Source: Hydrurus foetidus (taxonomy: Eukaryota). From it: 64,000 nucleotides of DNA. Made by a program: the position numbers and the translations under genes. The notes under the pieces are model-generated. The model did not search any database. It was not told the DNA's origin and was given only the letters and a program-made list of their open reading frames with translations. Location: positions 124,001-188,000 of the forward strand of contig UYFQ01000010.1 of assembly GCA_900617105.1 (NCBI GenBank). The letters are read 5' to 3'. The first letter of the stretch is position 1. Each line of letters opens with the position of its first letter. Of this stretch, positions 870 through 53,903 are shown piece after piece.

Positions 870-2009
870 TTATCTTTTTTTCTTCACGAAATTGGTGAGC
901 TGGCTGGCGAGGTCATCCATTTGCAGCAGAGTCTGGCGCCATTGTTGTGCGGCCAGTGACCATTCCGCCAGCGGCAAGTCGCCCCAACGGATGGCGTTGG
1001 GGGCGGATGCCGACGCAGCTGCAGTGCCATTCCAGGCATGGTGCGCAGCGCGCAAGGAAGCTGGCGCCTGCATCTGGTCCAGCAGCGCGCCCAGTTTGTC
1101 GGCGTGGGCGCCATCGTCCTGCGGGTAGATGTGCCACAGCCAGGGTTTGCCGGCCCAGATCGCGCGCACCAGCGAGTCCTCGCCCCTTACCAGGTTCAGG
1201 TCGCAGGTCCACAGCAGTTCGTCAAATTCGGGTTGGGTTAATGGCTCCAGCCAGTGCAGTGCCAGAGCGTCAGCGCCGGTGGTTGGCAGATCCATCTGCG
1301 CCAACGCAGATTGCACTGTGCGCTGGGCCCGGCCCGGCGTGACCAGCAGCAGCGTGGGCGTGGCGCCTTCCACCAGGCCTTGCAGCAGGTTGGTGAGCGC
1401 GGGTGGTTCGTAGCAAAACAGCGAGACCAGGCGTTGACCTTGCCAGATAACGCCTTTCTGCGCCAGCCAGGCCCGGCGTGCAGCGTCATCAAACGCGGCT
1501 TGACGTGCCAAGTAGTCCGACTCACGCAACAGGCCGCCAGTGCGTGGTGTGAAGCCGGGGTAAGAGAAATGCTTGGTCCAGCCCTGCCCCGGGCCCTGCA
1601 TGACGGGCGAGGGCAGGGCGTGGCAGCGCTCCACATAGGCCTCGGCCGACAGGTACTCCAGGTTGATCCACACCGGTGGTTTATGCTTATTTTGGCCTCT
1701 AGCCCCCGTATTCATTACGCGAGCAGCTATGAATTCAGGAGCAATCTCGCAGCCAAAGCCTTCTACCCACACGTCGGCCTGAGGCAGTTCTTCCAGTACC
1801 TCTGGCGTTTGCGCATCCGCCCAATCGCGCACCTGCACGCCGGGCCAGCTGCCCCCAACTGCGCCGGGGGCCATCCAGGCCAGGGCGCTCTTGTCGTCTA
1901 CCCACAGGCGCACCGTGTGGCCGCGGCGGGCCAGGTCAGCGCACAGGCGCCAACAAACGCCGATGTCGCCAAAGTTGTCGATGACCTTGCAGAAAATATC
2001 CCATTGCAT
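870..2009 (-). CDS. earP: EF-P arginine rhamnosyltransferase
   Basis: MQWDIFCKVIDNFGDIGVCWRL, WINLEYLSAE and NLVRGEDS motifs; upstream of efp. Confidence 0.95.
   Translation of the reverse strand: MQWDIFCKVIDNFGDIGVCWRLCADLARRGHTVRLWVDDKSALAWMAPGAVGGSWPGVQVRDWADAQTPEVLEELPQADVWVEGFGCEIAPEFIAARVMNTGARGQNKHKPPVWINLEYLSAEAYVERCHALPSPVMQGPGQGWTKHFSYPGFTPRTGGLLRESDYLARQAAFDDAARRAWLAQKGVIWQGQRLVSLFCYEPPALTNLLQGLVEGATPTLLLVTPGRAQRTVQSALAQMDLPTTGADALALHWLEPLTQPEFDELLWTCDLNLVRGEDSLVRAIWAGKPWLWHIYPQDDGAHADKLGALLDQMQAPASLRAAHHAWNGTAAASASAPNAIRWGDLPLAEWSLAAQQWRQTLLQMDDLASQLTNFVKKKR
1699..1743 (+). repeat. Dispersed 45-bp motif, copy 1 (inside earP, antisense)
   Basis: CTAGCCCCCGTATTCATTACGCGAGCAGCTATGAATTCAGGAGCA. 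Confidence 0.9.
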
Positions 2010-2066
2010 GGTGGCTATTGTCCATGCGGTGCCAGCGTCCCCAATGAGCAAGCACAATAGCGTCCC

Positions 2067-4052
2067 ATGTCTGAAGCACCCTCCGCAGAAACCCATTCCG
2101 ACGCGCTGCTGCGCGAAGTAGCGGCCCTGCCGTCCCTGCCCGGGGTATACCGCTACTTTGATGCGGACAACCAACTGCTGTACGTGGGCAAGGCCATCAG
2201 CCTGAAGAAGCGTGTCAGCAGTTATTTTCAGAAAAACCATGGCGGTACGCGCATCGGCCACATGGTCAGCAAGATTGTGCGCATGGAGACCACGGTGGTG
2301 CGCTCCGAGGCGGAAGCGCTGCTGCTGGAAAACAACCTCATCAAGACGCAGAACCCAAAATACAACATCCTGTTTCGGGACGACAAGAGCTACCCCTATC
2401 TGAAGATGACCGGTACGCCGCCGGTGCCCAAGCACCTGGCGCCCGCCGAGGTGTCGGGCAAGCCCCGTCCACCACAGCCGGTGGAGTTCGCCCGCGTGTC
2501 CTACTACCGAGGTGGTGTGGAAAAAAAGCACCGTTACTTCGGCCCCTACCCGAGTGCCTGGGCGGTGAAAGAGGCGATCCTGCTGATGCAAAAGGTGTTT
2601 CGCCTGCGCACCTGCGAAGACCCGGTATTCAGCAACCGCACCCGGCCCTGTTTGCTATACCAGATCAAACGATGCTCCGCCCCCTGCGTGGGCCACATCA
2701 GCCCGTTGGACTACGCCCAGGACGTGGCCAATGCCGAGCGCTTTTTGCGTGGCGAGGCGCAGGACGTGATGCGTGGCCTGGAGGCCCGCATGATGGCGCA
2801 CTCCGACAAGCTGGAGTTTGAACAGGCCGCCGAGCTGCGCAACCAGGTGGCGGCACTGTCGAATGTGCTGCACCAGCAGTCGGTGGACAACGTGTCGGAC
2901 CGCGATGTGGACATCCTGGCCGTCAAGGTGCAGGGCGGCAAGGCGTGCGTGAACCTGGCCATGGTGCGTGGTGGCCGCCATCTGGGCGACCGGCCCTATT
3001 TCCCCGTCCATGTGGAAGACGCCACGGTGATGGGCGAGGCCGATGACAGCGAAGCCAAGCGCTCGGTCGAGGCCCAGGTGCTGGAGGCCTTCCTGGCGCA
3101 GCACTATATAGATGTGCCCATGCCCGGGGCCCTGGTGGTGAGCGAGCCTGTGAGCAAGCTGCTGTTGCAGGCGCTGTCCGAGCAAACCGGCATCAAGGTC
3201 ACCGCGGTGCACCAGCCGCGTGAACAGCGCCGCGCCTGGCTGGACATGGCGCAGACCAACGCCGCGCTGCAGCTGGCGCGCCTGTTGGCCGAAGAAGGCT
3301 CGCAGCAGGCGCGCACCCGCGCGCTGGCCGACGCGCTGGACCTGGCGCTGGATGACCTGGATGCACTGCGCATCGAGTGCTTTGACATTTCGCACACGGC
3401 GGGCGAGGCTACGCAGGCCTCGTGCGTCGTGTTCCAGCACCACAAGATGCAGAACAGCGAGTACCGCCGCTTCAATATCGAAGGCATCACCGGTGGTGAC
3501 GATTACGCCGCCATGCGCCAGGTGCTGACGCGGCGTTACAGCAAGCTGGCGGAGGCGCTGCGCGAAGCCAAGCACCAGGGCACCACGCCCTCCGGCACCG
3601 CACGGTTCCCGGACCTGGTGCTGGTGGACGGCGGCAAGGGCCAGGTGGCCATGGCGCGCGAGGTGTTTGAGAGCCTGGGGCTGGACCTGTCACTCATCGT
3701 CGGGGTGGAGAAGGGCGAGGGCCGCAAGGTGGGGCTGGAGGAGCTGGTGTTTGCCGATGGCCGCGACAAGGTGTACCTGGGGGCAGACTCGGCGGCGCTC
3801 ATGCTGGTCGCGCAGATCCGCGACGAAGCCCACCGCTTTGCCATCACTGGCATGCGCGCTGCGCGCGCCAAGGTGCGTACCGGCGGCGGCAAGCTCGAAG
3901 AGATTCCGGGCATAGGCCCCAAGCGCCGCGCCAAACTGCTGCAGCGTTTTGGCGGGGTGCGTGGCGTGGCGCTGGCTAGCGCGCAGGACATTGCCACCGT
4001 GGACGGAATATCGCGTGAACTGGCCGATGAAATCTACCGAGCCCTGCATTAG
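2067..4052 (+). CDS. uvrC: Excinuclease ABC subunit C
   Basis: GIY-YIG N-terminus (PGVYRY...LLYVGKA), [22 protein letters not shown]-terminal HhH. Confidence 0.97.
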
Positions 4053-7374: not shown

Positions 7375-7451
7375 GGTGGCTGTAGCTCAGTTGGTAGAGT
7401 CCAGGATTGTGATTCCTGTTGTCGTGGGTTCGAGCCCCATCAGCCACCCCA
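7375..7451 (+). tRNA. tRNA-His (GTG)
   Basis: Cloverleaf with G-1, anticodon GTG and CCA end; TATAAT at 7358-7363. Confidence 0.97.
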
Positions 7452-7462
7452 AGTGATATATG

Positions 7463-7497
7463 AAAAGCCTGCTATTCAAAAGATAGCAGGCTTTTTT
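7463..7497 (+). terminator. Rho-independent terminator after tRNA-His
   Basis: AAAAGCCTGCTAT-TCAAAAG-ATAGCAGGCTTTTTT. Confidence 0.85.
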
Positions 7498-8262
7498 CAT
7501 TTGTGTTGCTTGTAGGCAATCAGTAGGCAAATTGCCGAAATTGCCATAGGGGGATGCGTCCAATAACTTGGACTACTTGGAGGTAGTTCATGTATTCATA
7601 CGAAGAGCGCATTCAGGCAGGGCAGCTCGCGCATCTGCATTAACCAAGCCACCATGTCTGCCAGCCGAACCAAACGACCGTCGGCGGTGCCGTCACAGCG
7701 TTGCAAGCCATGGGGTGACTGTGCGGCCCATGATTCAGGCTGCACTATGGGGCGTGTATCTCCATCCGCGCCCAGCGCAGCGCACGATATGTTCAGATGG
7801 TGTCTCCGGTTGTGCGGCAAGCCAGGCGGCGAAGTCTGACGCGGCAATGAAGTAGGTCGTCACGTCATAGGGCTGGGGAGTCCTTTGCGTGGGCCTGGCG
7901 GAAATGAACCCGTCGCGCATAAGCCATTCACTCGATGTGAACCTGGTTTGTCGCTGCACTTGCAGCGGCTTGGGTGTCACCGTCACCGTTGTGGCTGTAT
8001 GGGCGAGCAGCCACTTTTACACGCATCCGCAATGCCGTTGGCCCTTGCCCGTGTAAGTCGAATTTTTGCGGTTTCGCCCTTGATCTGCGGGTATTGCAGC
8101 GCGGCCAGTTACCAATGCTTTAGCGTTTTAGGCCACCTGGCTGCGTGCTCTTCCTTGGTGAAGTTCTGCCCCATCTTGGCCATCGCCACGCGCCATGCAG
8201 CGCTAATCTTCCCCACAATTTCCCGGCAAGCGGTTCATCAATACTTGCTTCACGCTGTGCGT

Positions 8263-9184: not shown

Positions 9185-9308
9185 ATTTGCTGTAGTGGTC
9201 AAGTAATTTCGGACAGTCATCCGGGGTGGTCTCTGCCCCGCGCGCTGGTCTGCTCCCGTCCGCCCCCACGTGGGGGCTCCCCCAGCTCGCGCGATTGTTT
9301 GGTCGGTT

Positions 9309-9353
9309 TGCTACAAAATTAGTAGCGTTCCCCGCTTGTAATACGGGGGCTAC
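9309..9353 (-). repeat. Dispersed 45-bp motif, copy 2 (intergenic)
   Basis: Reverse complement: GTAGCCCCCGTATTACAAGCGGGGAACGCTACTAATTTTGTAGCA. Confidence 0.85.
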
Positions 9354-9651
9354 AGGCCGAAATGGTCTGTAAGCCAGTGTCGCCACTGGCTTGCTTTTCA
9401 GGTGCAAACGCAATATCGGCCCTGCGGTTTTGGGTGCTGCTTAGACAAGCCGTACGGTACGTGGTGGACAGAACCTGCAAGCGAGTTTTCTCCTTTGTCT
9501 CCTTTGTCTCCATCGCCTCCATGTATCAGCCCCTCGAAGTCTCCGTGTGGAGTCGCCGTTTTGGTGAGCACATTGCCGCATGTATGCCAAAGTCCAAAAA
9601 TCGAACAAAACACCAATTACAATAAAATCACCAGAAAAAGTCAGCTCCGGC

Positions 9652-23047: not shown

Positions 23048-24073
23048 ATGAAAAAGCCCCCCAGCGCTCACCCACTCGACAGCCCAGTCGGTCAGCGTAG
23101 CGCGGGGCTGGGTTTGGAGTCAAATATGCCTCTAGCCCCCATGGAGTCTGCGCCAGCAGCTCCTGAAATCATAGCGGCCGTCGAGCTGAATCGCCTTGCC
23201 CGCGAGGTGCAGCCCGGCGATGAATCGGCCGATGCGCTGTCCATCTACCTGCGTGGCGTGCGCCGCACCACGCTGTTCACTCCCGAAGAAGAGTTTGCCG
23301 CCGCCACCCGCGCCCGGGCCGGTGACTTTGAGGCACGGCAAAGCATGATCGAGCACAACCTGCGCTTGGTGGTCAGCATTGCGAAGGGCTACACCGGGCG
23401 GGGCGTGCCCATGTCCGACCTGATCGAAGAGGGCAACCTGGGGCTGATGCACGCCATCGACAAGTTCGAGCCCGAGCGCGGCTTTCGCTTTTCTACCTAC
23501 GCGACCTGGTGGATACGCCAATCGGTGGACCGCGCGCTGATGTACCAAGGCCGCGCAGTGCGACTGCCGGTGAACGTGGTGCGCGAGGTGCAGCAGGTGC
23601 TGCGCGCACGCCGGGCGCTGGAAAACGACGCTGCGCTGGTGGCCAGACGCCCTGAGGGCATCCGCGCGGAAGACATTGCGCACCTGTTGGGGCGTGAGTC
23701 GTCCGACATTGTGGATTTGCTCGCCATGGCCGAGACACCCCGCTCGCTGGACGCTTCGCTGGACCCGTCGGGCGACGAGCATTCACTGGGCGACAGCCTG
23801 GTGGACGAGCTGGCGCTGGACCCCGAGGACTCGGCCCAGGCCCACGAGGTAGACACGCTGCTGGAAAGCTGGATTGCCACACTCTCGCCGCGCGAACGCG
23901 AGGTGCTGGAGGGCCGCTTTGGCCTGCATGACCGCGAGCCCGAGACGCTGGACGTGATCAGCAGCCGCTTGGGTCTGACGCGCGAGCGCGTGCGACAGGT
24001 GCAAAACGAGGCGCTGTTCAAGCTCAAACGCCACCTGGCCCGTCGCGGCATCAAGCGCGAATTTCTGATGTAG
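23048..24073 (+). CDS. rpoS: RNA polymerase sigma factor RpoS-like
   Basis: [39 protein letters not shown]; downstream of nlpD; start approximate. Confidence 0.88.
23132..23176 (+). repeat. Dispersed 45-bp motif, copy 3 (in the rpoS N-terminus)
   Basis: CTAGCCCCCATGGAGTCTGCGCCAGCAGCTCCTGAAATCATAGCG. Confidence 0.88.
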
Positions 24074-24120: not shown

Positions 24121-25641
24121 ATGAGCGACGCAATTTCCCCCGACACCCTTTCCCCTATTTCCCCCGAAACCCCGACCGAACCCGCACTGCCCGAAGGCTG
24201 GCTGCGCGTCAAATCGCTGGACCTGGAGGCCCAGGGCGTGGCCCATCGGCCGGATGGCAAGGTGGTGTTCATTGACGGCGCGTTGCCGTTTGAGGTGGTG
24301 AGCGCCCAGATTCACCGCAGCAAAAGTAGCTTTGAGAAAGGCACGCTGACCGAGATCCACCGCGAATCCTCCCAGCGCGTGCGCCCGGCCTGCCCACACT
24401 TTGGCCTGCATGAAGGCGCGTGTGGAGGTTGCAAGATGCAGCACTTGCACGTGAGCGCTCAGGTGGCGGTGAAGCAGCGCGTGCTGGAGGACAACCTCTG
24501 GCATATCGGCAAGGTCAAGCCCGACAACATCCTGCGCCCCATCGAGGGCCCGGCCTGGGGCTACCGCTACCGCGCACGCCTGTCGGTGCGCCATGTACGC
24601 AAAAAGGGCCAGGTACTGATTGGCTTCCATGAGCGCAAGAGCCGCTACGTGGCCGACATGAAGGAATGCCATGTGCTGGCGCCCCATGTGAGCGCCATGC
24701 TGGTGCCACTGCGCCGCCTGATCGAGTCCATGGACGCGATCGAAACGCTGCCGCAGATCGAGCTGGCCATGGGCGATATGGCCCCCACGGCGGGGGCCAA
24801 CGGCGGTGCGGGGGAGGTGATCGCCATGGTGCTGCGCCACCTGGAGCCGCTGTCCGACGGCGACCTGGAACGTTTGCGCCAGTTCGCGGCGATCAACCCT
24901 GGCCTGCAGTGGTGGCTGCAGCCCAAGGGGCTGGACACCGTGCACCGCCTGGACGAGCTGCCCGGCCACAGCACAGGCCAGCTGGCCTACCAGCTGCCCG
25001 ACTTTGGCATCACCATGCCGTTTCGCCCCACCGACTTCACCCAGGTGAACCCCCACATCAACCGCGTGCTGGTGTCGCACGCGCTGGGCCTGCTAGCGGT
25101 GCAAAAGACCGAACGTGTGATCGACTGGTTCTGCGGCCTGGGCAACTTCACGCTGCCGCTGGCCACGCAGGCGCGTGAAGTGCTGGGCGTGGAGGGCGCC
25201 GAGGCGCTGGTGGTGCGTTCGCGCGAGAACCTGGCGCTGAATGTGGCGGCTGGTTTAGAGTCAAATAACCCTCTAGCCCCCGTCAATCCTGCGCTAGCAG
25301 CTACAAAATTCGTAGCGCGCAACCTGTTTGAGATGACGCCTGAGTTGCTGATTGGCGATGGCACAGCCGACAAGTGGCTGGTCGACCCACCCCGCGAAGG
25401 CGCGTTCTCCCTGGTGCAGGCCTTGGCCGCCCTGCACCAGCAGCCAGAGCTGCGCAAAGGCTGGACGCCACCCCAGCGCATTGTCTACGTGAGCTGCAAC
25501 CCGGCCACGCTGGCGCGCGATGCGGGTGTGCTGGTACAAGAGGCGGGCTACCGCTGTACCAAAGGGGGCGTGGTGAACATGTTCCCCCATACGGCGCACG
25601 TGGAGAGCATTGCGGTGTTCGAGCTGGCTGAAGCGGCCTAA
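24121..25641 (+). CDS. rlmD: 23S rRNA m5U1939 methyltransferase
   Basis: TRAM domain, CPHFG..CGGC Fe-S motif, [25 protein letters not shown]. Confidence 0.94.
25273..25317 (+). repeat. Dispersed 45-bp motif, copy 4 (inside rlmD)
   Basis: CTAGCCCCCGTCAATCCTGCGCTAGCAGCTACAAAATTCGTAGCG. Confidence 0.9.
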
Positions 25642-33074: not shown

Positions 33075-33896
33075 ATGAAACCGCCCGCTAAAAGGGGGAC
33101 GTGGGGCGGAGCCGGGCGTTGGCTATGGGCCACGCTGGCTGGATCGTTCCTGCTGATAGCCGCGTTCGCGGCACACGCTGATGTGCCGTCCACGCTGGTG
33201 CTGGGCACGTCGCGCCCCGATAACACCTATGCGGGCCGCCTGCTACGCCGCACTTACCAAGAGCTCTTCAGCCGCCTGGGCATTCCGTTGGAGATTCGCA
33301 CCACCCCCGCCGCACGCCTGAGTCTGGAGCTGGCGTCAGATCGCATTGATGGCGACGTGGCGCGGCCGCTGGCGTTTGCCGAAAGCCAACCCGGCTTGGT
33401 CCGCATCGATGAGCCGATTCTTTCCATCGGCTTTGCGCTGTGGGCCGTTAACCCCAAATACACGCTGCAGCGGCTGGACCAGCTAGCGGACTCAGGTTGG
33501 TCGGTGAACTTCACGCGCGGAGTGGTGGAGTGCGAACGGCTATTGCAAAGCCTGCTGCCCGCCAGCCGCATTGTGGACGTGACGACCACCATCAACGCCC
33601 TGAACCTGTTGCACCACGGGCGTAACGACCTGCATTGCGGCATTGATGTGGCGGTCTGGTCCGACGCTGGCAGCCCGGAGTTGGTCGGCATGCCGCCGCC
33701 GATCAAGGTACTCGGCATTGGTGACCCTCTTCCGCTGTATTTTTACCTGCAACGCAAGCACGCCGCTTTGCTGCCGCAGATAGAAACCACGCTGAGAAAA
33801 ATGAAGGCGGAGGGGTTGCTGGAGCAGTACCGCAAAGAGGCGATGGTGGAGTTCAAGCTGCTGCCAGCTCCCAAGCCAGCGGCGGCAGGCCGTTAA
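33075..33896 (+). CDS. Periplasmic substrate-binding protein (family 3-like)
   Basis: GGAG RBS, signal peptide, RIDGDVAR, YFYLQRKH...LRKMKAEG. Confidence 0.75.
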   Translation: MKPPAKRGTWGGAGRWLWATLAGSFLLIAAFAAHADVPSTLVLGTSRPDNTYAGRLLRRTYQELFSRLGIPLEIRTTPAARLSLELASDRIDGDVARPLAFAESQPGLVRIDEPILSIGFALWAVNPKYTLQRLDQLADSGWSVNFTRGVVECERLLQSLLPASRIVDVTTTINALNLLHHGRNDLHCGIDVAVWSDAGSPELVGMPPPIKVLGIGDPLPLYFYLQRKHAALLPQIETTLRKMKAEGLLEQYRKEAMVEFKLLPAPKPAAAGR

Positions 33897-33911
33897 GAAT
33901 GAAATAGGGCT

Positions 33912-33956
33912 CTAGCCCTTGTTTTCATTGCGCGAGCAGCTACGAAAACGATAGCA
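33912..33956 (+). repeat. Dispersed 45-bp motif, copy 5 (overlaps the DUF1513 stop)
   Basis: CTAGCCCTTGTTTTCATTGCGCGAGCAGCTACGAAAACGATAGCA. Confidence 0.9.
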
Positions 33957-35064
33957 ATGTGGCGTGGTTGTCCCACGGTATGGCCACAGCGTAGCGCTGC
34001 GGCTGTGGTGCGCCGTCCCGGTACTGCAGTGCGGCAGCATCGCCCCCCACCATCCAGCCCGTACCACCCGCGGCCAGTGCACCGGCTCCCGGTAGCACCT
34101 GGCATTGCAGGTTGTGGCCCTGGTGCGTCCACGACGTCAACCAGCCCGCATGCGGGGCGCTGATCCAAAAGCGGTCGGCGGTGCAGCAGACGTCGCCCGC
34201 ATAGCCATCCCACGACGGAGGTGCACCGGCCGCCGCATCCCAGGGGACGGCACGCAGTTGCTCACCCTCCAGCAGCGCCAGGGCGGGGACCTGGGTGCGC
34301 AGTACGGGGTCGGCGTGCTCCGCCTGCAAGGCAATCGCTACAGTGCCATTGGGGGCGATGGCCAGATGGCGCAGGCTGAGAAAGGAATCTGTGAGCCGGT
34401 ACTGCGCCAGCACCGCGCCCGTGGCTGCATCGAGCCGCGTGAGGTTGGACTCCATGCGGCCCACATTGCGCTTGCGCCGCCCGGTCTCGGGCAGGTTCAG
34501 AATGCCGCCGTTGGCGACCAGCAGGGTGCCAGCAGGCTCCAGCAGCAAGGCGTGGGGGCCAATGCCGCCGCTAGGAAACTCGCGCAGCTTTTCCAAGCTT
34601 TGCAGATCACGCTCGGCAATGAGGCCCTGGCCGCTTTCGCCATCGGTCTCGGTGGTGAAAAACGTCTTGCCGCTGGCAGACAGCGCGGCGTGGCCGCCCA
34701 GGTAGCGGTCGTCTTCCATGGTGTGCCACTGCAGGGCCCTGCCGCGCTGCACATCCATGCGCATCAGGTATTCGCCAGGACGGCGCGCCAGCACCAGGGC
34801 CTGCTGTGCGGGGCCACGGCTGGCGGGCACTAGCAGCAACTGGTGAGCCCGCGCGGGCAGGGCGATGCCGCGTGGCGTCTGGCTGGGCGTCCACACCCCG
34901 CACCAGGATTGCTCGCCGCGCATCCAGGCGGTGAGCACACGGGGCTGGGCGAGGTTGGGAGCAGGGGCAGCCTGGCTGTCCCAAGCGCTGGCGCCCAGGC
35001 CCAACAGGGCCGCCTGGGCCAGCAGGCTGCGACGCGTGGGATGGCGCAAGGCTTCAGTCACCAT
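33940..35064 (-). CDS. DUF1513 family protein (Tat-type signal)
   Basis: TRRSLL, ARRPG, GGHA, GIGPH, ANGGI, SLRHLA, WDNH. Confidence 0.85.
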   Translation of the reverse strand: MVTEALRHPTRRSLLAQAALLGLGASAWDSQAAPAPNLAQPRVLTAWMRGEQSWCGVWTPSQTPRGIALPARAHQLLLVPASRGPAQQALVLARRPGEYLMRMDVQRGRALQWHTMEDDRYLGGHAALSASGKTFFTTETDGESGQGLIAERDLQSLEKLREFPSGGIGPHALLLEPAGTLLVANGGILNLPETGRRKRNVGRMESNLTRLDAATGAVLAQYRLTDSFLSLRHLAIAPNGTVAIALQAEHADPVLRTQVPALALLEGEQLRAVPWDAAAGAPPSWDGYAGDVCCTADRFWISAPHAGWLTSWTHQGHNLQCQVLPGAGALAAGGTGWMVGGDAAALQYRDGAPQPQRYAVAIPWDNHATLLSFS

Positions 35065-36130
35065 CGGCGTCGGTAAAGCCCATGCTGATGTGCAGCACGG
35101 TGTCGGCCAGGCTGCCGAGGAACTGTGAGAGCTGGGCCAGCGCGTGTTGCGCCGTGCGCAGTGACGCGGCGTTGTCGGGCCGCGCATGCGCACCGCTGCG
35201 CAGGGCCGCCAGGGTGAGGCGTTGCAGCTGGCGGCTGGGTTGGGGCGTGTCGTTGCCCAGCAGCAGGCCTTGCAAGCTGCCGGCCACCGGCCAGTCGGGC
35301 CGTGCGGCCTGTGCGGCAGCTGACCCGACCAGAAAGGCTTGTACGCCCTGGAGCTGGGCCTGCCAGGCGGCAGTGGTTTGCCCGCTGACGCCGCGCACCC
35401 AGAGTGAGACTTCCTTGCCACGCGTATCGGGCACCATCTTCTTGATGCGCAGCTGGTCCAGCCCGCCCACGGCCTGGCCATACCACTCGCCATAGAGTGC
35501 GGCGGCCTCGTCTTCGCTGCGTGCCGCCGCGGCAATGGCGCGGTAGCCGTCCAGCAAGACGGTGCATTCGTTCAGGATGTGCTGCGCCAATAGCTGGGCG
35601 TAATGTTGGCTGGATGGGTTGGCGGGCAGGCGCCAGAACATCCACTCCAGCGCTGGCAAGCCCCGGGCTGCGCTGCCCACCGATTCGATCTGCTCCGGCG
35701 TCAGGGGGCTGGCTGCGTTGGCATCCAGCTGGCGCTGAATTTGCGCGGGTCGCGTGGGCCAAAAATCGATAGACCGTGCGGCGCGGCGCTCCAGCAACGG
35801 CCCGACGGCCACGGCAGCCAAGCGCTCCCAGTGCAACATGGTTTGCACCCACAGAGGTTGCTGGGCTTGCCAGTGCGTGGCGGGTTGGGCCAGCGACTGG
35901 TAAAGGGCCGTCGCGCTTTGCTGCAGGGCTTCGGCCACCGGAATGTAGTGGCCCTGCAAGAGCGCCAGCACGCGCTGGCGTGCGGACAGGAAGGGACCGG
36001 TGGAGGCGGAGGTACCAGCGAAGCTGTCAAACGAGACTGGATTTGCTACGTTTTTAGGAGCTGCTCGCGCAATATCCATAAGGGCTAGCGTGCCAAAAGG
36101 CATGCAAGCGAGAAGCGTGCGTCGTTTCAC
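35054..36130 (-). CDS. Imelysin-like protein
   Basis: IDFWP, RGLPALEW, GFTDADGD C-terminus. Confidence 0.85.
   Translation of the reverse strand: MKRRTLLACMPFGTLALMDIARAAPKNVANPVSFDSFAGTSASTGPFLSARQRVLALLQGHYIPVAEALQQSATALYQSLAQPATHWQAQQPLWVQTMLHWERLAAVAVGPLLERRAARSIDFWPTRPAQIQRQLDANAASPLTPEQIESVGSAARGLPALEWMFWRLPANPSSQHYAQLLAQHILNECTVLLDGYRAIAAAARSEDEAAALYGEWYGQAVGGLDQLRIKKMVPDTRGKEVSLWVRGVSGQTTAAWQAQLQGVQAFLVGSAAAQAARPDWPVAGSLQGLLLGNDTPQPSRQLQRLTLAALRSGAHARPDNAASLRTAQHALAQLSQFLGSLADTVLHISMGFTDADGD
36044..36088 (-). repeat. Dispersed 45-bp motif, copy 6 (in the imelysin signal peptide)
   Basis: Reverse complement: CTAGCCCTTATGGATATTGCGCGAGCAGCTCCTAAAAACGTAGCA. Confidence 0.9.
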
Positions 36131-39815: not shown

Positions 39816-39955
39816 GCACCGCGACTGCCCAGGAGCACACCCAGCTGAGTTTGCGCCCTCGCAGCAAGCCCTCCAGCCCCGTGCTGGCCTGGCGCACGCC
39901 CCTTGCGGTGCAATTCGAAACGATCAATGCACACGACTCTACTTTGGTATAAAAA

Positions 39956-41236
39956 ATGCCCATAGCCCCTGTCAACAATGCGCAAGCAGCTATCGAAAAG
40001 ATAGCATTTGGAGGTCCGTCCATGCCGGTTAATGAACACAGCCACAGTGGTTTTTGCCACCATGAGACTGCTGCGGCCCCAGCGCAGGGCTCTCGGCGCA
40101 AACGCCTCTGGGATTTGGGCCACCAGTGCCATTGCCCGCTGGTGGGGGTGAGCCTGCCCATGGATGTGTTGCACCGACTGGTCAACAAAGCGCTAGGTGG
40201 CAGTGCCGTTGCCAATGACTACGAGGTGCACGCCGGTGCTGTGTCTGAATGTGCGCGACGCTCCAAGCTGTCGGAGCTGATGCAGGCCGAACTGGATACG
40301 CGGTATACGCGCGAGATTCAATGGTTCAAGACGGCCAGGAGCACCCTGGCGGTGGCCGATAGCTGGATCAAGTCGCTGAAGGCGGGGGATGTGGCGGGTG
40401 CCTTCTGGGCGGCCCTGACGCACCCGCGTTGCGACGCGTCGTTGCAAGAGGCCATGTGCAGAGACCTGCACATGTTCCAGCACCAAGCGGGCGCGGGCCT
40501 GCGCCTGGAGATGACGCGCTTCAATGCGTTGGCAGAAGAAAACGCCGTGCTGACCCGTGAGCTGGGCAAGGTGCAGGAGCGCATCACGCGCGTCATCGGC
40601 CAGAAGACAGCGGACATTGAGCGCCTGAACGCGCTGCTGCTGCAGGCACGGGCGGATGCCATTGCCAAGGACAGCCGCATCAGCTTCATGGCCCAGGATC
40701 TGGAGGCCTTGCAGGCGTTCATTCCCCAGCTCGAAGACAAGCAGCGCCTGCAAAAGAAGGTAGACCAAATGGCCCAGCGCCAGTTGGAGCTGGAAGGGCA
40801 GAACGCAGAGTTGCGGCGCAAATTGGCGGTGGCCGAGAAGGCCTCCGTGGGCACAGTGCCGCGTGAGTCGGCGCCCAGCTTGGAAGGGAATGCGCTGGTC
40901 GGCGTGCAGGCCATGGTGATCCAGCTGCACCAAAAGATGGTGCTGTGCGTGGGCGGGCGCAGCGGCAACATTGCCAACTACCGTGACGTGGTCGAACGCG
41001 TCGGCGGACGCTTTGCACACCACGATGGCGGGGTGGAAGACAACGCCTCGGTGCTGGACGCCAACCTGGCTGCCGCGGATTTGGTGATCTGCCAGACCGG
41101 CTGCATTAGCCACAACGCGTATTGGCGCGTCAAAGACTTTTGCAAGCGCACCGGCAAGCGTTGTGTGTTCGTGGAGAACCCCAGCGCATCGTCTTTGGAG
41201 CGTGGGTTGGCGTTGTCAGAGGGCGTCGTTCCGTAG
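39956..41236 (+). CDS. DUF2325 domain protein (original start possibly 39812)
   Basis: Coiled coil, then VLCVGG...HHDGG.E...ADLVICQTGCISHNAYWRVKDFCKRTGK. Confidence 0.85.
   Translation: MPIAPVNNAQAAIEKIAFGGPSMPVNEHSHSGFCHHETAAAPAQGSRRKRLWDLGHQCHCPLVGVSLPMDVLHRLVNKALGGSAVANDYEVHAGAVSECARRSKLSELMQAELDTRYTREIQWFKTARSTLAVADSWIKSLKAGDVAGAFWAALTHPRCDASLQEAMCRDLHMFQHQAGAGLRLEMTRFNALAEENAVLTRELGKVQERITRVIGQKTADIERLNALLLQARADAIAKDSRISFMAQDLEALQAFIPQLEDKQRLQKKVDQMAQRQLELEGQNAELRRKLAVAEKASVGTVPRESAPSLEGNALVGVQAMVIQLHQKMVLCVGGRSGNIANYRDVVERVGGRFAHHDGGVEDNASVLDANLAAADLVICQTGCISHNAYWRVKDFCKRTGKRCVFVENPSASSLERGLALSEGVVP
39962..40006 (+). repeat. Dispersed 45-bp motif, copy 7 (DUF2325 N-terminus)
   Basis: ATAGCCCCTGTCAACAATGCGCAAGCAGCTATCGAAAAGATAGCA. 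Confidence 0.88.
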
Positions 41237-42787: not shown

Positions 42788-42807
42788 CACCCTGCGCAAG
42801 CCGCCGT

Positions 42808-42928: not shown

Positions 42929-42941
42929 TGACTGCACAAGT

Positions 42942-42986
42942 AGCTACATAATTGATAGCTGCTCGCGCAAATTTCACGAGGGCTAC
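42942..42986 (-). repeat. Dispersed 45-bp motif, copy 8 (intergenic)
   Basis: Reverse complement: GTAGCCCTCGTGAAATTTGCGCGAGCAGCTATCAATTATGTAGCT. Confidence 0.9.
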
Positions 42987-42994
42987 AGGCCATT

Positions 42995-43366
42995 TCAGTG
43001 CTGATCAAACGCAGCATCGGCAACATCCAAGCGATCGAACACGGCCAACCCCTTGTGCACATCCCCGGTGGCGGCCATGGAACGGAAATGGTTCTCGGTA
43101 TCCCACGTAGCCAGCGCGCGGGCGCTGAGCTGCTCCACCAGCTTGTTCATGGACGGGCTCAGCTTTACGCCAGCGATTTGGGCCGCTGCGCCGTGTCGTT
43201 GGGTAATCGTATTGTCAAAGTGCTCATAACCATTCTGGCCTGGAGCTGTTGCTGCGCTACTGCGCCCGCCACAGTTTTCAAACGTCCAGGCGTGGATGAA
43301 TGCTCCGTATGCCGCATCCCAGCGAACTAATGAACAAATCGCCGGATAGGAGCCTTCAACAATCAT
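42995..43366 (-). CDS. Hypothetical protein (may be a fragment)
   Basis: 123-aa ORF downstream of mazF; no recognised motif. Confidence 0.35.
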   Translation of the reverse strand: MIVEGSYPAICSLVRWDAAYGAFIHAWTFENCGGRSSAATAPGQNGYEHFDNTITQRHGAAAQIAGVKLSPSMNKLVEQLSARALATWDTENHFRSMAATGDVHKGLAVFDRLDVADAAFDQH

Positions 43367-44536: not shown

Positions 44537-44601
44537 AACCCATGGTCAAATCGACCTTAAGTCCTTGTCAAACCCTGATAGTTTGCTATCAAATTCATAA
44601 C

Positions 44602-46138
44602 ATGCCTATTTCATATCGCTCGCTGAAAACACTCACCGTGAGCGCCCTGGCCGTGGTGGGCCTGTGCTTGTCCGCCCAAGCGCAAGCCCCGCTGGACGTG
44701 CGTATCGCGCTGGTGATTGGCAACTCGGCCTACGCCGGTGCGCCGCTGGTCAACCCGGCCAACGATGCACGCGCCATGAGCGAGACTTTGCGCGGTTTGG
44801 GCTTCACGGTGGTTGAGCTGCGCGACGCGCAAAAGATGCAAATGGCGGATGCGATTGCCAAAGTGCGTGACTCGCTCAAGGGCAAACAAGGCGTGGGTAT
44901 GCTGTATTACGCTGGCCATGGTTTGCAATTGGACTGGCACAACTACATGGTGCCGGTGGATGCCAGAATGAGCAAAGCCGCCGACGTGGCCGAGCAGGCC
45001 GTAGACATCAACACGGTGATCGATGCTTTCAAGGACGCGGGTAACCGCATGAACATCTTAGTGCTGGATGCCTGCCGCGACAACCCGTTTGCAGGCACCA
45101 CCACCGGCAAAGGCCTGGCGCAGCTGGACGCGCCTCCAGGCACGTTTCTGGCCTATGCCACCGCGCCAGGCAATGTGGTGGAGGATGGGGATGTCAAGAG
45201 TGGCAAAGGGCTGTACACCCAGTTTTTGCTCGAGGAGCTGAAGAAGCCTGTTTCCTAAATTGAAGACGTGTTCAAGGGGGTGCGTTTGCAGGTCAGGCAA
45301 AAAAGCCAGGGGCGGCAAATTCCCTGGGATTCCACCAGCTTGGAGGATGACTTTTTCTTCAATACTGGCAAGGTGATGGCTGTGGCCAAGCCCGACGAGA
45401 AATTGCGGGAAGTCGCCTTCAATACCGAGAAGAGCGATTGGGACAAGGTCAAGGACAGTAAAAACGCGACTGATTTGTACGCGTTCCTGCGGAAATATCC
45501 CAACGGCAATATCAGTGAGCTCGCGCAGGCACAACTGGAGCGGCTTGATCGCGCCAAAACCATCGCGCTGCCTGATCGCAACGGCGAAATACAGAGCGCT
45601 GTTGCTTTGCGCTTCAGGCTGGGCGACACCTACGAATTCGCCATCAAAGATGGCTTGACGGGCGTCACAAGGACCCTTTCTACGGCAGTCGTCACAGCCG
45701 TTACAGATGGGCGCGTCGACCTCACCGGTAGTTTTGGTCCCAACTCTCGGGGCGCTGCCACGGTGGCCGGAGTAATCATTAGTCCCGGTGGGGATACTTA
45801 TGACCCGCCGTTCACACAGATACCGAGGGGCGAATATCAGGTTGGCAAGAAGTGGAGCGGCCGTTCAAACCGAACCTCCGAAAGCGGAAAAACGGGATGG
45901 ATGGAATACCAGGGGCACATCCAGGCCTACGAAAAGGTACAAGTTGCGGCTGGAACTTTTGACGCTTACAAAATCCAGATGGATTTTCAGTTCGACAACG
46001 GCTTGCGACGTAAAACCACGCTGGGCACAGCCTGACTGGGGTCTGCCCATGAAGATGGTCATTGAATCGCGGCCAAGATCTGAGTCATTGGATGTTCTTG
46101 TTCGCGAGATGCTCTCACGTCGGCGAACTAACAGCTGA
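44602..46138 (+). pseudogene. Secreted caspase-like (peptidase C14) protein, disrupted
   Basis: Signal peptide, RIALVIGNSAY, YYAGHG, LDACR; in-frame TAA at 45256-45258; frameshift near 46020. Confidence 0.8.
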
Positions 46139-46148: not shown

Positions 46149-46620
46149 TACTCAATAGCCATCAGCACACGGGATGGTGGCACATCGTTCAAACACCGCA
46201 GATGCCCTTTGCCCTCCGGCAGCGGACAAACGCGAGAAAGATACGGCGCGCAGTCCCATGGCGGCTAGTACGCCTTGTCGTTCTTGAGCCATATCACGGT
46301 GGCTTCTAAGCTGAGCGGCGGCGTATGCAAGGGGCTGCTCGAACCAAAGATAGCGACTTGCAGCACGCCAAAAGCATCGGCCAAGTGCATCAGACCAGAA
46401 TCGTTGCTCACTATATTTTTAGTAGCAGATATCGCAATAAAAGCGAGGACTAGTGAGGTTTTCCCTGTCGAATTGGTGAGCCAGATCGGCATAGGGCGCA
46501 GTGGGCCAGCGCTTGAACGGCCCGTATTCGGCACCCGGCGCAAACACGTAATATCGACCGCGGTTCAGGCCCATTTGCGCCAGGGCGATGGTGGCGTCTG
46601 CTTCGTTAATGTGCAGGCGT
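46149..46620 (-). pseudogene. waaF: LPS heptosyltransferase II, 3' fragment
   Basis: FAPGAEYGPFKRWP, SNDSGLMH, FGSSSPLHTPPL, GHLRCL; contains a deletion, frameshifts and a stop. Confidence 0.8.
46409..46453 (-). repeat. Dispersed 45-bp motif, copy 9 (degenerate, in the waaF fragment)
   Basis: Reverse complement: CTAGTCCTCGCTTTTATTGCGATATCTGCTACTAAAAATATAGTG; same register as the other copies. Confidence 0.65.
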
Positions 46621-46703: not shown

Positions 46704-46798
46704 GCGTGGCCGCCAGGGCACAGCGTGACCCGCGTGGTGGGCGGCAGCCGCTATGTGTTGTCGCTGGGCTGGGTGTTGAAGGCGTAGGCCCGATAATC
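46704..46798 (+). repeat. 95-bp direct repeat, right copy (includes GATAAT just before rlmB)
   Basis: Matches 42693-42787; translates as [22 protein letters not shown], like a 2OG-Fe(II) oxygenase C-terminus. Confidence 0.9.
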
Positions 46799-47586: not shown

Positions 47587-47610
47587 TTGGGAACCTGGGG
47601 TAATGATGTT

Positions 47611-47655
47611 TGCTACGAAATCAGGAGCTGCTCGCGCATATTCGACGGGGGCTAT
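47611..47655 (-). repeat. Dispersed 45-bp motif, copy 10 (intergenic)
   Basis: Reverse complement: ATAGCCCCCGTCGAATATGCGCGAGCAGCTCCTGATTTCGTAGCA. Confidence 0.9.
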
Positions 47656-48098
47656 AGCCGCTTTTCGCTTCTTGGTCAGCACCCGGGCGTAGCAAAACAA
47701 GATCAGCCTCGCCATCCAGAACCGGACCAGCACGAACGGCGTGCTGAACGACAACCTGAACATGCAAGCCGATCCGGACGAGAAGAAGGTGCACTTCGAG
47801 ATCAGCGACTGCGGCGCTAACTACAACTTTTTCGAGAACCCACGCTGAGTGCTTGGTGGTGGTCGCCAGTACCACAGCCAAGAATCACTGCAGTATCTGC
47901 TGCCACCCCGCAAGGCATAGCCGCCTTTTCCGCGGTTGGAGTGGTGACTCGATCGCTGCGCTAGCGTTTGCTGGCGTTTGGGATTTGACGGGTTGAACAA
48001 AACGAGTGCCTAGAACGGGCTCTTCAACAGACTGGTTCTGCCTCGGCGCCAAGACGCCCGCAGACGGGATGCAGACCTTCGCTGTGCTCAAAAGCAGC

Positions 48099-48429: not shown

Positions 48430-48490
48430 CTCAATGTACCCCGCAAAGCATTGCGGGAAAAAGTGGGAGTTTGGTCTGTCAAAAATGGCA

Positions 48491-48535
48491 TTTGCCTATA
48501 TCCAGCCTGCCCAAGCTGCTCTCATAAAAATAGCG
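48491..48535 (+). repeat. Dispersed 45-bp motif, copy 11 (degenerate)
   Basis: TTTGCCTATATCCAGCCTGCCCAAGCTGCTCTCATAAAAATAGCG; upstream TCAAAAATGGCA is also in register. Confidence 0.55.
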
Positions 48536-48653
48536 ACAAACCCTGCAGTTTGCCAAACCTGATTTTGACGATTCAGTTGGGTCCTGAATATCCCCCAGAC
48601 GGGTGAATTTTGAGCGTCCGTTTCCGCCTCTGAGTGCTGCAATTTCCTCGCCC

Positions 48654-51610: not shown

Positions 51611-53848
51611 TCAGTACTGGGGTTGGTGTTTGCGGATGGCGGCTTTCACATCATCGCTGAGTGCAAAACCCGGGCCAAACTGCACGGCCAGCGCGGCAGC
51701 ACGCGCCTCAAACACGTCGATGCCCATGCCGTAGATGAACTGCATGGCACCTCCGGTCCAGGCCGGAAAACCAATGCCGAAGATGGAGCCAATGTTGGCG
51801 TCGTGCACGCTGGTCAGCACGCCCTCGGCCAGGCAGCGGGCGGTCTCGACGGCCTGGCGGTAGAGCAGGCGGTCCTTCAGGTCGGTGATGTTCCAGGGCG
51901 CATCGGCCTTCTCAAACAGCGGTTTGAGCTGGGGCCAGAGGAATTTCTTGGCGCCTTTCTTAGCCTGTTCTTGGGTGGGGTAATCGTAAAAGCCGGCACC
52001 GCCCGCGCGGCCGGGGCGCTCATGCTCGCGCACCATTTGTTCCACCACCAACTCGCCCGGTGTGGCGGTGTAGGTTTTGCCTTCCGCGTCAAAGTCTTTC
52101 CGGGTCTGCTCCATGACATGCAGGCTCAGCGTGAGCGCCGTTTCGTCCAGCACGGCCAGCGGACCCACGGGCATGCCGCACTGCACGCCAGCGTTCTCAA
52201 TGGCGGCGGCGGGAATGCCCTCCATCAGCATGGCCGCACCCTCCATCACAAAGGTGCCAAACACGCGGCTGGTGAAGAAGCCGCGCGAGTCGTTCACCAC
52301 GATGGGGAGCTTGCCCAGTGCCTGCACATAGTCAAAAGCGCGTGCCACGGTTTCATCGTCGGTCTGCTTACCCTTGATGATTTCCACCAGCTTCATCTTG
52401 TCTACGGGGCTGAAGAAGTGGATGCCGATGAACTTCTTGGCATCGCGGCTGGCAGTCGCCAGGCCGGTGATGGGCAGGGTAGAGGTGTTGGAGGCAAAGA
52501 AGCCGCCGGGCGCGAGTAGCGGCTCGGCCTCCTGCGTCACGCGGGCCTTAAGTTCGCGGTTTTCGAACACGGCTTCGATGATCAGGTCGCAGCCCTGCAG
52601 GTCAGCAGCGTCTGCCGTCGGTTTGATCAGGTCCAGAATGCTTTGCTGGACCTCAGGCTTCATGCGCCCCTTGTCCACGCGGCCTTGGGTGATCTTGGCG
52701 GCATAGCCCTTGCCGGTGTCGGCCTTGTCCTGGCTCACGTCCTTCAGCACGGTGGCAATGCCCTTGCTGGCTTGGCTGTAGGCAATGCCCGCGCCCATCA
52801 TGCCGGCGCCCAGAATGCCGACTTTCTGCGGCCTAAAGCGATCTACCGTTCGGGCTGAGCTTGTCGAAGCCTTGAGCCCTTCGACAGGCTCAGGGCGAAC
52901 GGTATTGGGGCGGCTCTGGCCGCTTTTGATGGCGTTCAGGTTGAAGAAAAAGGTGTTGATCATGGCCTTGGCCTGCGGGCCAGACATGAGCTTGGCGAGA
53001 TACCGGCTCTCGATACGCAGCGCCGTTTCAATATCGACCTGCAGGCCTTCGACCATGCAGGCCATGATGGCCTCGGGCGCTGGGTACAGGCCACGCGTTT
53101 GCTTCTTGATCATGGCGGGTGCCACCGGCAGCATGCCCGCCACGGCGGGCGAAGAGGGCAGACCGCCGGGCACCTTGTAGCCCTTGGCTTCCCACGCGTG
53201 CTGGGCGGTGGGGTTGGCGGCTATCCAGGCCAATGCCTTCGTCTTCATCTCCGCGGCCGCATCGGGGCCGGGCGCCACTAGGTCGTGCACCAGGCCCAGG
53301 CCCTTGGCCTCTGCAGGAGAAAACAGTTTGCCTTCGACCAGGTAGGGCTGCGCGCCCATCAGACCGAGGTGGCGCGTCATCTTGGTCACGCCGCTGGCGC
53401 CTGGCAGCAGGCCCAGCGTCACCTCGGGCAGGCCGAACTGGGTCTTGCGGTCGTCAATGGCAATGCGGTGGTGGCCCACCAGCGCCACTTCCCAGCCGCC
53501 GCCCAGGGCCGTGCCGTTCAGCAGGCTGACCACGGGCTTGCCCAGGGTCTCGATAGCGCGGAAGTTCTTTTTGACACGCTCGATCTCTTCAAAGATGCGC
53601 GGCGCGTCGGCCGGTGTCAGGCGCATGGCAGCCTTGAGGTCGGCGCCCGCAAAGAACGTGCTCTTGGCCGACGCCAGCAGAATGCCGGTGATGCTGTCCT
53701 TGTCCTGTAGCACGCGGGCAGCCACGGCGTCCATATCTTCCTGCCACTGCAGGCACATGGTGTTGACGGCGGAGTCCGGCTCGTCAAAGGTGATGGTGGC
53801 AATGCCCTTGCCGTCGATGTTGGACAGGGAGTATTGGATGGTTTTCAT
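51611..53848 (-). CDS. 3-hydroxyacyl-CoA dehydrogenase / enoyl-CoA hydratase multifunctional enzyme (FadB/FadJ-like)
   Basis: AGADL, GGGWE, GLPEVTLG, GAGMMGAGIA, SNTS, HFFSP. Confidence 0.93.
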   Translation of the reverse strand: MKTIQYSLSNIDGKGIATITFDEPDSAVNTMCLQWQEDMDAVAARVLQDKDSITGILLASAKSTFFAGADLKAAMRLTPADAPRIFEEIERVKKNFRAIETLGKPVVSLLNGTALGGGWEVALVGHHRIAIDDRKTQFGLPEVTLGLLPGASGVTKMTRHLGLMGAQPYLVEGKLFSPAEAKGLGLVHDLVAPGPDAAAEMKTKALAWIAANPTAQHAWEAKGYKVPGGLPSSPAVAGMLPVAPAMIKKQTRGLYPAPEAIMACMVEGLQVDIETALRIESRYLAKLMSGPQAKAMINTFFFNLNAIKSGQSRPNTVRPEPVEGLKASTSSARTVDRFRPQKVGILGAGMMGAGIAYSQASKGIATVLKDVSQDKADTGKGYAAKITQGRVDKGRMKPEVQQSILDLIKPTADAADLQGCDLIIEAVFENRELKARVTQEAEPLLAPGGFFASNTSTLPITGLATASRDAKKFIGIHFFSPVDKMKLVEIIKGKQTDDETVARAFDYVQALGKLPIVVNDSRGFFTSRVFGTFVMEGAAMLMEGIPAAAIENAGVQCGMPVGPLAVLDETALTLSLHVMEQTRKDFDAEGKTYTATPGELVVEQMVREHERPGRAGGAGFYDYPTQEQAKKGAKKFLWPQLKPLFEKADAPWNITDLKDRLLYRQAVETARCLAEGVLTSVHDANIGSIFGIGFPAWTGGAMQFIYGMGIDVFEARAAALAVQFGPGFALSDDVKAAIRKHQPQY
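52844..52904. repeat. 61-bp REP-like palindrome, in frame within the FadB/FadJ-like gene
   Basis: TACCGTTCGGGCTGAGCTTGTCGAAG-CCTTGAGCC-CTTCGACAGGCTCAGGGCGAACGGTA. Confidence 0.88.
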
Positions 53849-53858
53849 GGAAGATGCC

Positions 53859-53903
53859 TGCTATGAAATAAGGAGCTTCTTGCGCAATGGATACGGGGGC
53901 TAG
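53859..53903 (-). repeat. Dispersed 45-bp motif, copy 12 (fills most of the thiolase-fadB spacer)
   Basis: Reverse complement: CTAGCCCCCGTATCCATTGCGCAAGAAGCTCCTTATTTCATAGCA. Confidence 0.9.

Follow-up and report, generated by a model that had tools for sequence, protein, structure and literature searches.

The dispersed motif of the 64,000-nucleotide stretch of DNA analyzed here (the window) is a fixed-geometry double-stranded DNA site, which is held at hundreds of native-chromosome positions. The motif belongs to the Comamonadaceae: ~81 of 301 genomes of this family carry 20 to 712 pattern matches, and none of 300 other genomes of the class exceeds 12. This bore out the expectation of a preliminary description of the window that such genomes would hold hundreds of copies. 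Its proposal of a selected site of fixed geometry was likewise supported, as the motif score is kept across orthologues and the dyads do not covary.

Copies and geometry of the motif

The 12 copies initially described were all recovered with the same coordinates and strands, and they aligned without indels. With a leave-one-out PWM they scored 16 to 54 bits, the top score in 20 Markov-simulated windows being 12 bits. The length of 45 bp originally given for the unit was not upheld, however, since the conserved unit spans ~66 bp, from about position -20 to +46. Beyond the 45-bp core it includes TT at -18/-17, an A- or T-tract at -9 to -6 and GGCC-like bases at -4 to -1. The copies are listed below with their scores where available, together with a lone end dyad and a degenerate 13th copy that was absent from the earlier list.

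1679..1744, + strand: full copy within earP on its antisense strand, covering a conserved helix and a loop (56.7 bits)
7470..7488, + strand: isolated end dyad that forms the terminator stem following the tRNA at 7376-7448
9308..9373, - strand: full copy, intergenic (55.5 bits)
23112..23177, + strand: in-frame full copy within rpoS, in its variable N-terminal region (62.5 bits)
25253..25318, + strand: in-frame full copy within rlmD, covering the conserved strand that precedes RNLF (69.2 bits)
33892..33957, + strand: full copy between the convergent genes 32934-33896 and a DUF1513 gene, overlapping both stop codons (70.8 bits)
36043..36108, - strand: in-frame full copy covering the N-terminal stretch, signal-peptide-like, of the imelysin-like gene 35054-36130
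39942..40007, + strand: full copy directly upstream of the likely start of a DUF2325 gene (66.0 bits)
42941..43006, - strand: full copy beginning at the 3' end of ORF 42995-43366 (63.4 bits)
44538..44603, + strand: 13th copy, degenerate, within the caspase-like ORF 44164-45258 (16.7 bits)
46408..46473, - strand: weaker copy where a heptosyltransferase-like fragment ends (38.2 bits)
47610..47675, - strand: full copy downstream of rlmB (51.1 bits)
48471..48536, + strand: weaker copy downstream of chromate transporter genes (43.1 bits)
53858..53923, - strand: full copy filling the thiolase-fadJ intergenic gap (59.7 bits)

At least 4 of the 12 copies lie in frame within genes (earP, rpoS, rlmD and the imelysin-like gene), and further ones overlap start or stop codons. 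Several are common to loci of relatives, namely those in rpoS (L001, L006 and L050), in the imelysin-like gene (L081 to L085 and L088) and at the DUF2325 gene (L081 and L087), and the 33892..33957 copy is retained with 2 substitutions in read run X3. The 22-codon span of the earP copy is only ~8 residues longer than the corresponding part of Pseudomonas EarP. The lone end dyad has the same arrangement at the relative loci L024 and L245; among relatives' loci it builds tRNA terminators in 2 of 73 distinct tRNA 3' regions, in addition to that of the window. An Rfam search of the window returned two tRNAs and nothing else, with no match to the motif at gathering score.

The unit is composed of three subsites placed 20 to 23 bp apart, an A/T-tract box, a central dyad and an end dyad, and contains 52 to 57 bits of information. 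The central dyad (positions 1 to 25) is imperfect in the window and near-perfect in Acidovorax. The A-tract, AAAA or TTTT as a block, is a shape signal, and the AT content has its strongest period at 22 to 24 bp, with a weaker one near 10.5 to 11 bp. The spacer invariance initially reported was upheld in relatives: in 800 kb of Acidovorax DNA, the end dyad occurred with a 7-base spacer 127 times, and spacers of any other length from 3 to 11 had at most 11 occurrences each. The spacer sequence differs among copies, with spacer variants found in both orientations.

Distribution, conservation and codon overlay

Genome-wide statistics were taken from relatives of the window's DNA, mainly Acidovorax. 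The motif is strongly over-represented on both strands and spaced at ~7 kb (~0.14 per kb). The spacing is evener than random in two Acidovorax genomes (CV 0.68, p 0.001-0.02) and not in a third, low-copy genome (CV 1.12). The lack of strand polarity seen in the window extended to the chromosome, as no replichore bias was detected (Fisher p 0.64, 163 sites) with dnaA at base 1 of genome G004 and the terminus assumed at half length; a dif pattern had no match in 5 genomes. A polar motif of the KOPS/Chi type was rejected because strand skew did not switch at origin or terminus. Across 10 bins covering 0-4.9 Mb the density was uniform (chi-square p 0.56), with no macrodomain restriction or exclusion, which led us to reject a regional site of the matS/SBS/parS type as well. 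Presumed plasmids contained 0 copies in 278 kb vs ~38 expected. A 133-kb island with integrase and conjugation genes also had 0 copies, island regions having been chosen because strict-pattern matches were sparse there. A blastn search of PLSDB with one copy as query, an insensitive search, gave 4 partial matches, none covering 80%.

Two Acidovorax species have 65 of 69 comparable sites in common, and no clean empty site or target duplication was found among the 69. In 68 orthologous pairs, the copies accumulated 16.7 substitutions each with a score shift of -2.2 bits, vs -44 bits for random changes. The score of the rlmD site correlated with the genome-wide density of the motif (Spearman 0.85, 52 genomes, uncorrected for kinship). 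On the RlmD tree the motif label switches 12 times, and starred branches force at least 6 of these switches. Copies follow each genome's own dialect at this orthologous site: the rlmD copy resembles the copies of its own genome (0.575 vs 0.445 +/- 0.018; 30 loci, 0 of 5000 permutations). Copy subfamilies are marginal at best (nearest-neighbour identity 47.5 vs 47.0 +/- 0.3 of 66). No clear stepwise birth of sites was seen in the two-species Acidovorax comparison, and weak intermediate sites are scarce, with 5 at >=10 bits in 800 kb after masking, the null being 0.

Approximately 70% of the copies are intergenic and 30% lie in genes. Among intergenic gaps, the motif occupied 29 of 81 between convergent genes, 47 of 235 between co-oriented genes and 4 of 72 between divergent ones, and its orientation in co-oriented gaps was unbiased (25 vs 22). 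Within genes, 20 of 24 sense copies share one reading frame. In the alignments, the in-gene copies for the most part overlay existing codons and are not inserted. The orthologous rlmD site is present in 41 of 79 RlmD rows. Most orthologues with the motif, and many without it, have an anchor distance of 33 residues. Compared with 40 motif-less homologues, the length difference was 0 in 18 and +2 in 12, and conserved residues underlie both ends of the copy. The rlmD site shows silent-site selection: of 22 high-copy genomes, 19 use GTA as its Val codon, whereas GTA has a share of 4% elsewhere in the gene and was found in 2 of 19 low-copy genomes.

In some loops the presence of the motif goes with an extension of 7 to 16 residues. 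Locus L082, which has the motif of the 33912 site, looks ~60 bases longer than L081, which lacks it (by eye, in a poor alignment), an insertion-like hint.

Candidate roles of the motif

Our best guess places drive through biased DNA uptake or recombination first, with an architectural binding site close behind. We tentatively favor that the motif may be a self-DNA mark, preferred by a putative protein during DNA uptake or the ensuing homologous recombination and spread by molecular drive as proposed for DUS and USS. This is suggested by the codon overlay, even spacing, non-polarity, dialects and absence from plasmids and the island, which are genomic hallmarks of DUS and HIP1. A sequence-specific factor would read the A/T-tract box, the central dyad and the end dyad together with their shape, and fragments with a good site would be taken up or recombined more often. 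Sites would accrue by substitution where a partial match is tolerated, such as stop codons, ribosome-binding sites, loops and leader peptides, and one site per transferred fragment would be enough, which could give the even spacing. When the factor changes, all sites would drift to a new dialect; once it is lost, they would decay. ComEC and PilE/ComP-like pilins, the latter identified by PF16732, were each found in 43 of 45 genomes of both classes, with no motif-specific pilin group seen among 30 loci. Genomes without the motif have ComEC and ComP-like pilins equally often, and the competence machinery is therefore not tied to the motif by these data. Verminephrobacter eiseniae is the one relative with reported sequence-specific uptake, by an indirect assay (PMC4212676), and only one motif pair, unrelated to the 66-bp unit, is given for it in the supplement of PMC5217627. 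As a counterpoint, 52 to 57 bits in dyads suits cytoplasmic dimers.

An architectural role, also the proposal of the preliminary description, is a credible possibility that we hold with less than even confidence. A lineage-specific cytoplasmic protein would bind the motif as a nucleoid organizer, a topological insulator or a topoisomerase loading site, and ordinary selection for chromosome structure would maintain the sites. The regularly placed subsites with their dyads and block-wise shape signal, the even spacing at uniform density round the chromosome and the preference for convergent over divergent gaps are all compatible with this, and HIP1 has been argued to have such a role in the accessible text of PMC5861425. 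However, many lineages have lost the motif and live without it (among them the L002-L004 clade, Limnohabitans, Comamonas, Variovorax and L056/L080), its information far exceeds the ~14 bits calculated as needed to find ~740 sites, and the convergent bias follows promoter number, with no function required. Six families were tested as partners and none tracks the motif: H-NS (26/28), RdgC (21/28), tyrosine recombinases (28/28), ComEC, ComP-like pilins and RAYT. All 45 genomes have the RAYT-like gene (PF01797), whether or not they are rich in the motif, and the 28 RAYT loci inspected have 0 to 2 copies without inverted flanking pairs. This also bears on a reading in which the motif descends from a mini-transposon or REP-like element that a transposase such as RAYT once spread and that is now domesticated or in decay. 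This reading is largely refuted and in our opinion improbable. A copy number of 0 to ~700 across the family, the predominance of intergenic copies, the scarcity of intermediate sites and the lengthened loops would agree with it, but copy subfamilies are at best marginal, neither dyad shows compensatory pairing, the ends of the rlmD copy overlie conserved residues and its dialect tracks that of the genome. The initial separation of the motif from MITE and REP elements holds, in the light of missing clean empty sites, target duplications, full-length in-frame inserts and hairpin covariation. An RNA hairpin was rejected: across 108 copies the bases pair just as often as independence predicts, with no compensatory change.

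A transcription terminator, roadblock or regulatory operator is quite improbable. LysR-type boxes have a T-N11-A spacing, as does the end dyad. The motif is enriched at 3' ends and between convergent genes, also in PMC5217627, and the end dyad alone can serve in tRNA terminators. Against this stand the unbiased orientation in co-oriented gaps, the lack of covariation, the ~30% of copies in mid-gene and the depletion of the motif in divergent promoter regions. We regard as very unlikely a site-specific recombination site, which the preliminary description had also entertained. The two dyads with 7-base spacers recall lambda-type core sites, which have a 7-base spacer, and spacer variants in both orientations and the broken synteny between Acidovorax species would be expected of such a site. 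Yet only 3 possible spacer flips occurred in the 68 orthologous pairs, spacers differ among copies, and no joints at copies were present among the rows listed for a ~95% relative. An attachment site of the island was rejected, since the island begins at tmRNA, 5 kb from the nearest copy. Sites of IHF, OxyR/LysR, Lrp and type I restriction systems, resemblances judged by eye, do not explain the whole unit.

Sequence-specific uptake motifs have been described in two bacterial families, with HIP1 as a further candidate, in the accessible text of PMC2397512, PMC2817400 and PMC13756078. If our favored reading of a self-DNA mark is true, it would add a new case, a much longer and information-richer uptake site in a large family of environmental bacteria. 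It is possible, though we lean against it, that the motif is a third, independently evolved form of self-DNA recognition in natural transformation, Comamonadaceae-wide, with a putative receptor reading the three-part site, codons rewritten in ~200 proteins per genome and dialects as possible barriers between genera. Repeated losses and dialects offer a natural experiment for deciding between drive and selection as the origin of such motifs. An architectural role would instead point to a sequence-specific organizer with ~700 evenly spaced sites, and under either reading a DNA-level constraint is reshaping protein sequence. As a compact marker the motif tells native DNA from foreign, and cultures of Acidovorax, Polaromonas or Rhodoferax would allow direct tests of it.

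Comparison with known systems

REP/BIME/REPIN elements with RAYT and Rickettsia palindromic elements have hundreds of copies, mostly intergenic near 3' ends, with some in frame in genes. The motif differs from them in having no hairpin covariation, clusters, tandem pairs, RAYT linkage or full-length protein insertion. Like the Betaproteobacterial repeat element BRE, it is dispersed in Comamonadaceae with some copies in genes; BRE is set apart, by description and not by sequence, as 75 to 91 bp long, 69% GC, in tandem VNTR arrays and with at most 29 copies in the accessible text of PMC3110155.

In 2017, Tong et al. listed fragments of the motif as "potential novel motifs" (Table 7 and supplement file 2 of PMC5217627). 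The central dyad is their GCTTAT(N)5AAGCG, which has 114 copies in Acidovorax ebreus. For Polaromonas naphthalenivorans they give ATAGCT(N)22CAAAAG and many pairs of GCTAT/TAGCA, all pieces of the motif, as are the rows visible in the accessible part among 140 Rhodoferax ferrireducens pairs. These pairs have a convergent bias like that of the motif (44 vs 4), but they are separate and genome-specific, not joined into one family-wide 66-bp unit, and come without analysis of function, overlay, dialect or spacing. In the literature covered, which did not extend to subscription journals, no paper was found that describes the full unit or assigns it a function, and the main text of a 2026 preprint on non-coding elements contained no match in its accessible part.

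The cyanobacterial palindrome HIP1 is reported to enhance transformation (PMC13756078, accessible text). HIP1 and the motif are both over-represented, conserved within and between genes and regularly spaced (PMC5861425, PMC13756078, as far as accessible), and nucleoid structure and transformation have been proposed as roles for HIP1, as here. In contrast to this 8-base, methylase-read palindrome, the motif is long, asymmetric and three-part, with variable spacers. DUS and USS have a density of 0.8-0.9 per kb and, in the accessible text of PMC2817400, a non-palindromic core of 9-10 bases; the motif has a density of ~0.14 per kb, 66 bp, dyads and a far higher information content. They also have an uptake preference and a receptor, both of which are putative for the motif. 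The trait list of the DUS of Neisseriaceae and the USS of Pasteurellaceae is nevertheless the same, according to the accessible parts of PMC2397512 and PMC2817400: not inserted, in both orientations, evener than random (here in 2 of 3 Acidovorax regions), with reading-frame bias, at permissive positions, under-represented in genes (~30% here vs 34.5-65%), missing from recently acquired DNA and with lineage variants.

Architecture and distribution of the motif

The preliminary description had listed 12 copies of a 45-bp motif in the window. All 12 were present at their positions, with leave-one-out position weight matrix (PWM) scores of 16-54 bits (null maximum, 12) and a density of one per 5.3 kb. 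The length of the unit had to be revised, since conservation spans about -20 to +46 (position 1 being the start of the 45-bp motif) once the window copies are pooled with 53 non-rlmD copies out of 80 related loci. The unit holds 52-57 bits of information.

Conserved elements of the unit in the pooled alignment
5' part of the conserved span: upstream TT
-9 to -6: A/T tract with GC on both sides
1 to 25: central dyad
27 to 45: end dyad

The motif is a DNA site, not an RNA. In 108 non-redundant copies, the covariation expected of an RNA structure was not seen: pairing over either dyad equalled the independence expectation, complementarity at the inner spacer positions was slightly below it, and the strongest covariation was the A-tract flipping en bloc between AAAA and TTTT. 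The fixed spacing held, with an end-dyad spacer of 7 in 127 cases and at most 11 for any other length. The Rfam search gave no family match for the motif and only two tRNAs in the window.

The end dyad alone was also seen as a tRNA terminator stem, at window 7449-7520 and after tRNA genes in the related loci L024 (from a motif-less genome) and L245, followed by short direct repeats resembling integrase arm sites. Of the 73 distinct tRNA 3' regions in the loci examined, 2 had such a terminator. In the Acidovorax genome G326 (contig C64, ~116960 and ~126980), the end dyad lies 3' of two copies of the tRNA-Thr 3' end, 10 kb apart, a pair resembling the two ends of an island.

The RlmD comparison placed the window's organism within Comamonadaceae, closest to Rhodoferax-like genomes. 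By a hand count, about 81 of the 301 family genomes had 20-712 matches to a loose pattern; 164 genomes had zero, and the reversed-pattern controls yielded single-figure counts. The end-dyad pattern matched at most 12 times in any of 300 other genomes of the class, versus 303 in Acidovorax G004; over 400 kb of G004, the full PWM detected 55 copies, a density of about one per 7.3 kb, versus zero in null sequence of equal size. Among 50 genomes tied to named loci, those of Rhodoferax, Polaromonas, Curvibacter, most Acidovorax, Simplicispira and Giesbergeria were rich in the motif. Counts were low for Variovorax and Comamonas, and only 0-2 for Hydrogenophaga, Limnohabitans, Ramlibacter, Macromonas and the L002-L004 clade, which adjoins the window's organism.

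Conservation in place and overlay on genes

We have compared 91 sites of G004 with a second Acidovorax genome, G328; 22 lacked synteny, and 65 of the 69 comparable sites were common to both. The remainder comprised one weak site, one truncated relic and two at gene-sized indels, and the reverse comparison gave 66/69. Over 68 orthologous pairs, identity was 89% in high-information columns and 57% in low ones, and 16.7 substitutions lowered the score by 2.2 bits instead of 44. Only motif-rich genomes carried the motif base at the silent positions of rlmD, with the GTA codon in 19 of 22 of them versus a 4% background. For 46 of 52 genomes, presence or absence of the rlmD site agreed with the class of the genome, and it changed 12 times on a quick tree (loop masked). 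Dialects exist in the central part of the motif, the rlmD copy matching that of its own genome, and the sites showed no evidence of having recently been copied from one another. By these comparisons, the motif is held in place by an active, sequence-specific force.

By sequence comparison, the motif overlays genes and is not inserted into them. In Acidovorax, 37 of 117 copies, about 30%, lay in genes (crude ORF caller) and 20 of 24 sense in-gene copies used a single frame, orthologues being counted more than once in both. The 158 in-ORF sites yielded 24 groups with motif-less homologues, some groups being shadow frames of one site. Most of these differed in length by no more than a few residues, with no fixed difference of 22; differences of 7-16 residues fell in disordered loops (nlpD-like, rpoS, tonB-like). 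EarP has ~8 residues more over the motif span than the solved Pseudomonas EarP. In rlmD, conserved residues lie under both motif ends, and most motif-bearing genomes, like many motif-less ones, have an anchor distance of 33 residues. Against the overlay reading, at the 33912 site, between convergent genes, locus L082 seems, by eye, ~60 bases longer than L081.

The window's rlmD allele has +8 residues, its loop exceeding those of relatives by that number. The rpoS (23112-23145) and rlmD (25253-25286) copies share most of the upstream 30 bases and encode an identical peptide start; local conversion between them is possible. In several Acidovorax copies, the end dyad has GGAG in its right arm (positions 39-45), directly 5' of a start codon, and the motif thereby serves as a ribosome-binding site as well.

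Chromosomal placement and mobile elements

Strict-pattern sites, 163 in number and at positions up to 4.9 Mb, showed no replichore polarity and uniform density. Spacing was evener than random in G004 and G328, and not in low-copy G326. Occupied intergenic gaps were 29/81 convergent, 47/235 co-oriented and 4/72 divergent, occupancy dropping as promoter number rises. The small low-GC contigs held no copies in G004 (presumed plasmids, 278 kb) and one in the related genome G282 (80 kb). A 133-kb island at tmRNA, which carries integrase and conjugation genes, had no copies, and 10-kb bins below 60% GC had 0.1 copies versus 1.3; these regions were selected for their low hit density. Strict matches were present in 51 viral stretches, which outside the anchor match held only ~0.03 copies per kb. 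Viral contigs with several copies (L330-L380) carry them mostly on one strand, often immediately 5' of a ribosome-binding site.

A near-identical GC-rich stretch of ~45 bases occurs at window ~42713-42760 and ~46724-46770, where contigs of read run X1 break; the region between, with MazF-like and caspase-like genes, is possibly a small island. The relative of run X3 lacks a 1476-base segment (41386-42861) that includes a TetR-type regulator. Many contigs stack up at a distinct short repeat within fadJ (~52846-52903), which has a 93-base replacement in X3.

Candidate partners, maintenance and known systems

Family profiles were compared between motif-rich and motif-less genomes (45 or 28). The RAYT-like family (REP-associated transposases; 45/45) did not separate them, nor did ComP-like pilin (43/45), ComEC (43/45), RdgC (21/28), H-NS (26/28) or the tyrosine recombinase family (28/28). 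A single-copy Y1/RAYT-like gene (~232 residues, no flanking repeats), apparently a domesticated HUH nuclease, lies immediately 5' of gltB in most inspected Comamonadaceae loci (L257-L281, e.g., L261:1462-2163). A dif pattern, with 2 mismatches allowed, had no match in five genomes (G004, G130, G005, G012, G282) although XerC/D-like recombinases are present; the dif of Comamonadaceae may be divergent.

A drive like that of the DNA uptake sequences (DUS/USS) would account for the far-above-need information at each of ~700 redundant sites, for the amino-acid and codon costs and for the even spacing, and we hold it, by analogy, to be plausible with slightly under even confidence. An architectural role is only a little less probable; it is favored by the dyads, by the scarcity of intermediate sites and by Verminephrobacter, apparently without the motif though sequence-specific uptake is suggested there in PMC4212676.

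The literature search found the whole unit nowhere described. For three genomes, PMC5217627 includes motif fragments among its "potential novel motifs"; it assigns them no function and gives them as 61-94% intergenic. The Betaproteobacterial repeat element (BRE) is set apart by its traits as described in PMC3110155. The traits shown for the motif match those in the accounts of DUS/USS (PMC2397512, PMC2817400) and of HIP1, the cyanobacterial palindrome. DUS/USS, however, have a short, non-palindromic core; since the motif lacks one and its uptake role is putative, we do not class it as a DUS/USS. In its genome statistics, the motif is uptake-sequence-like.
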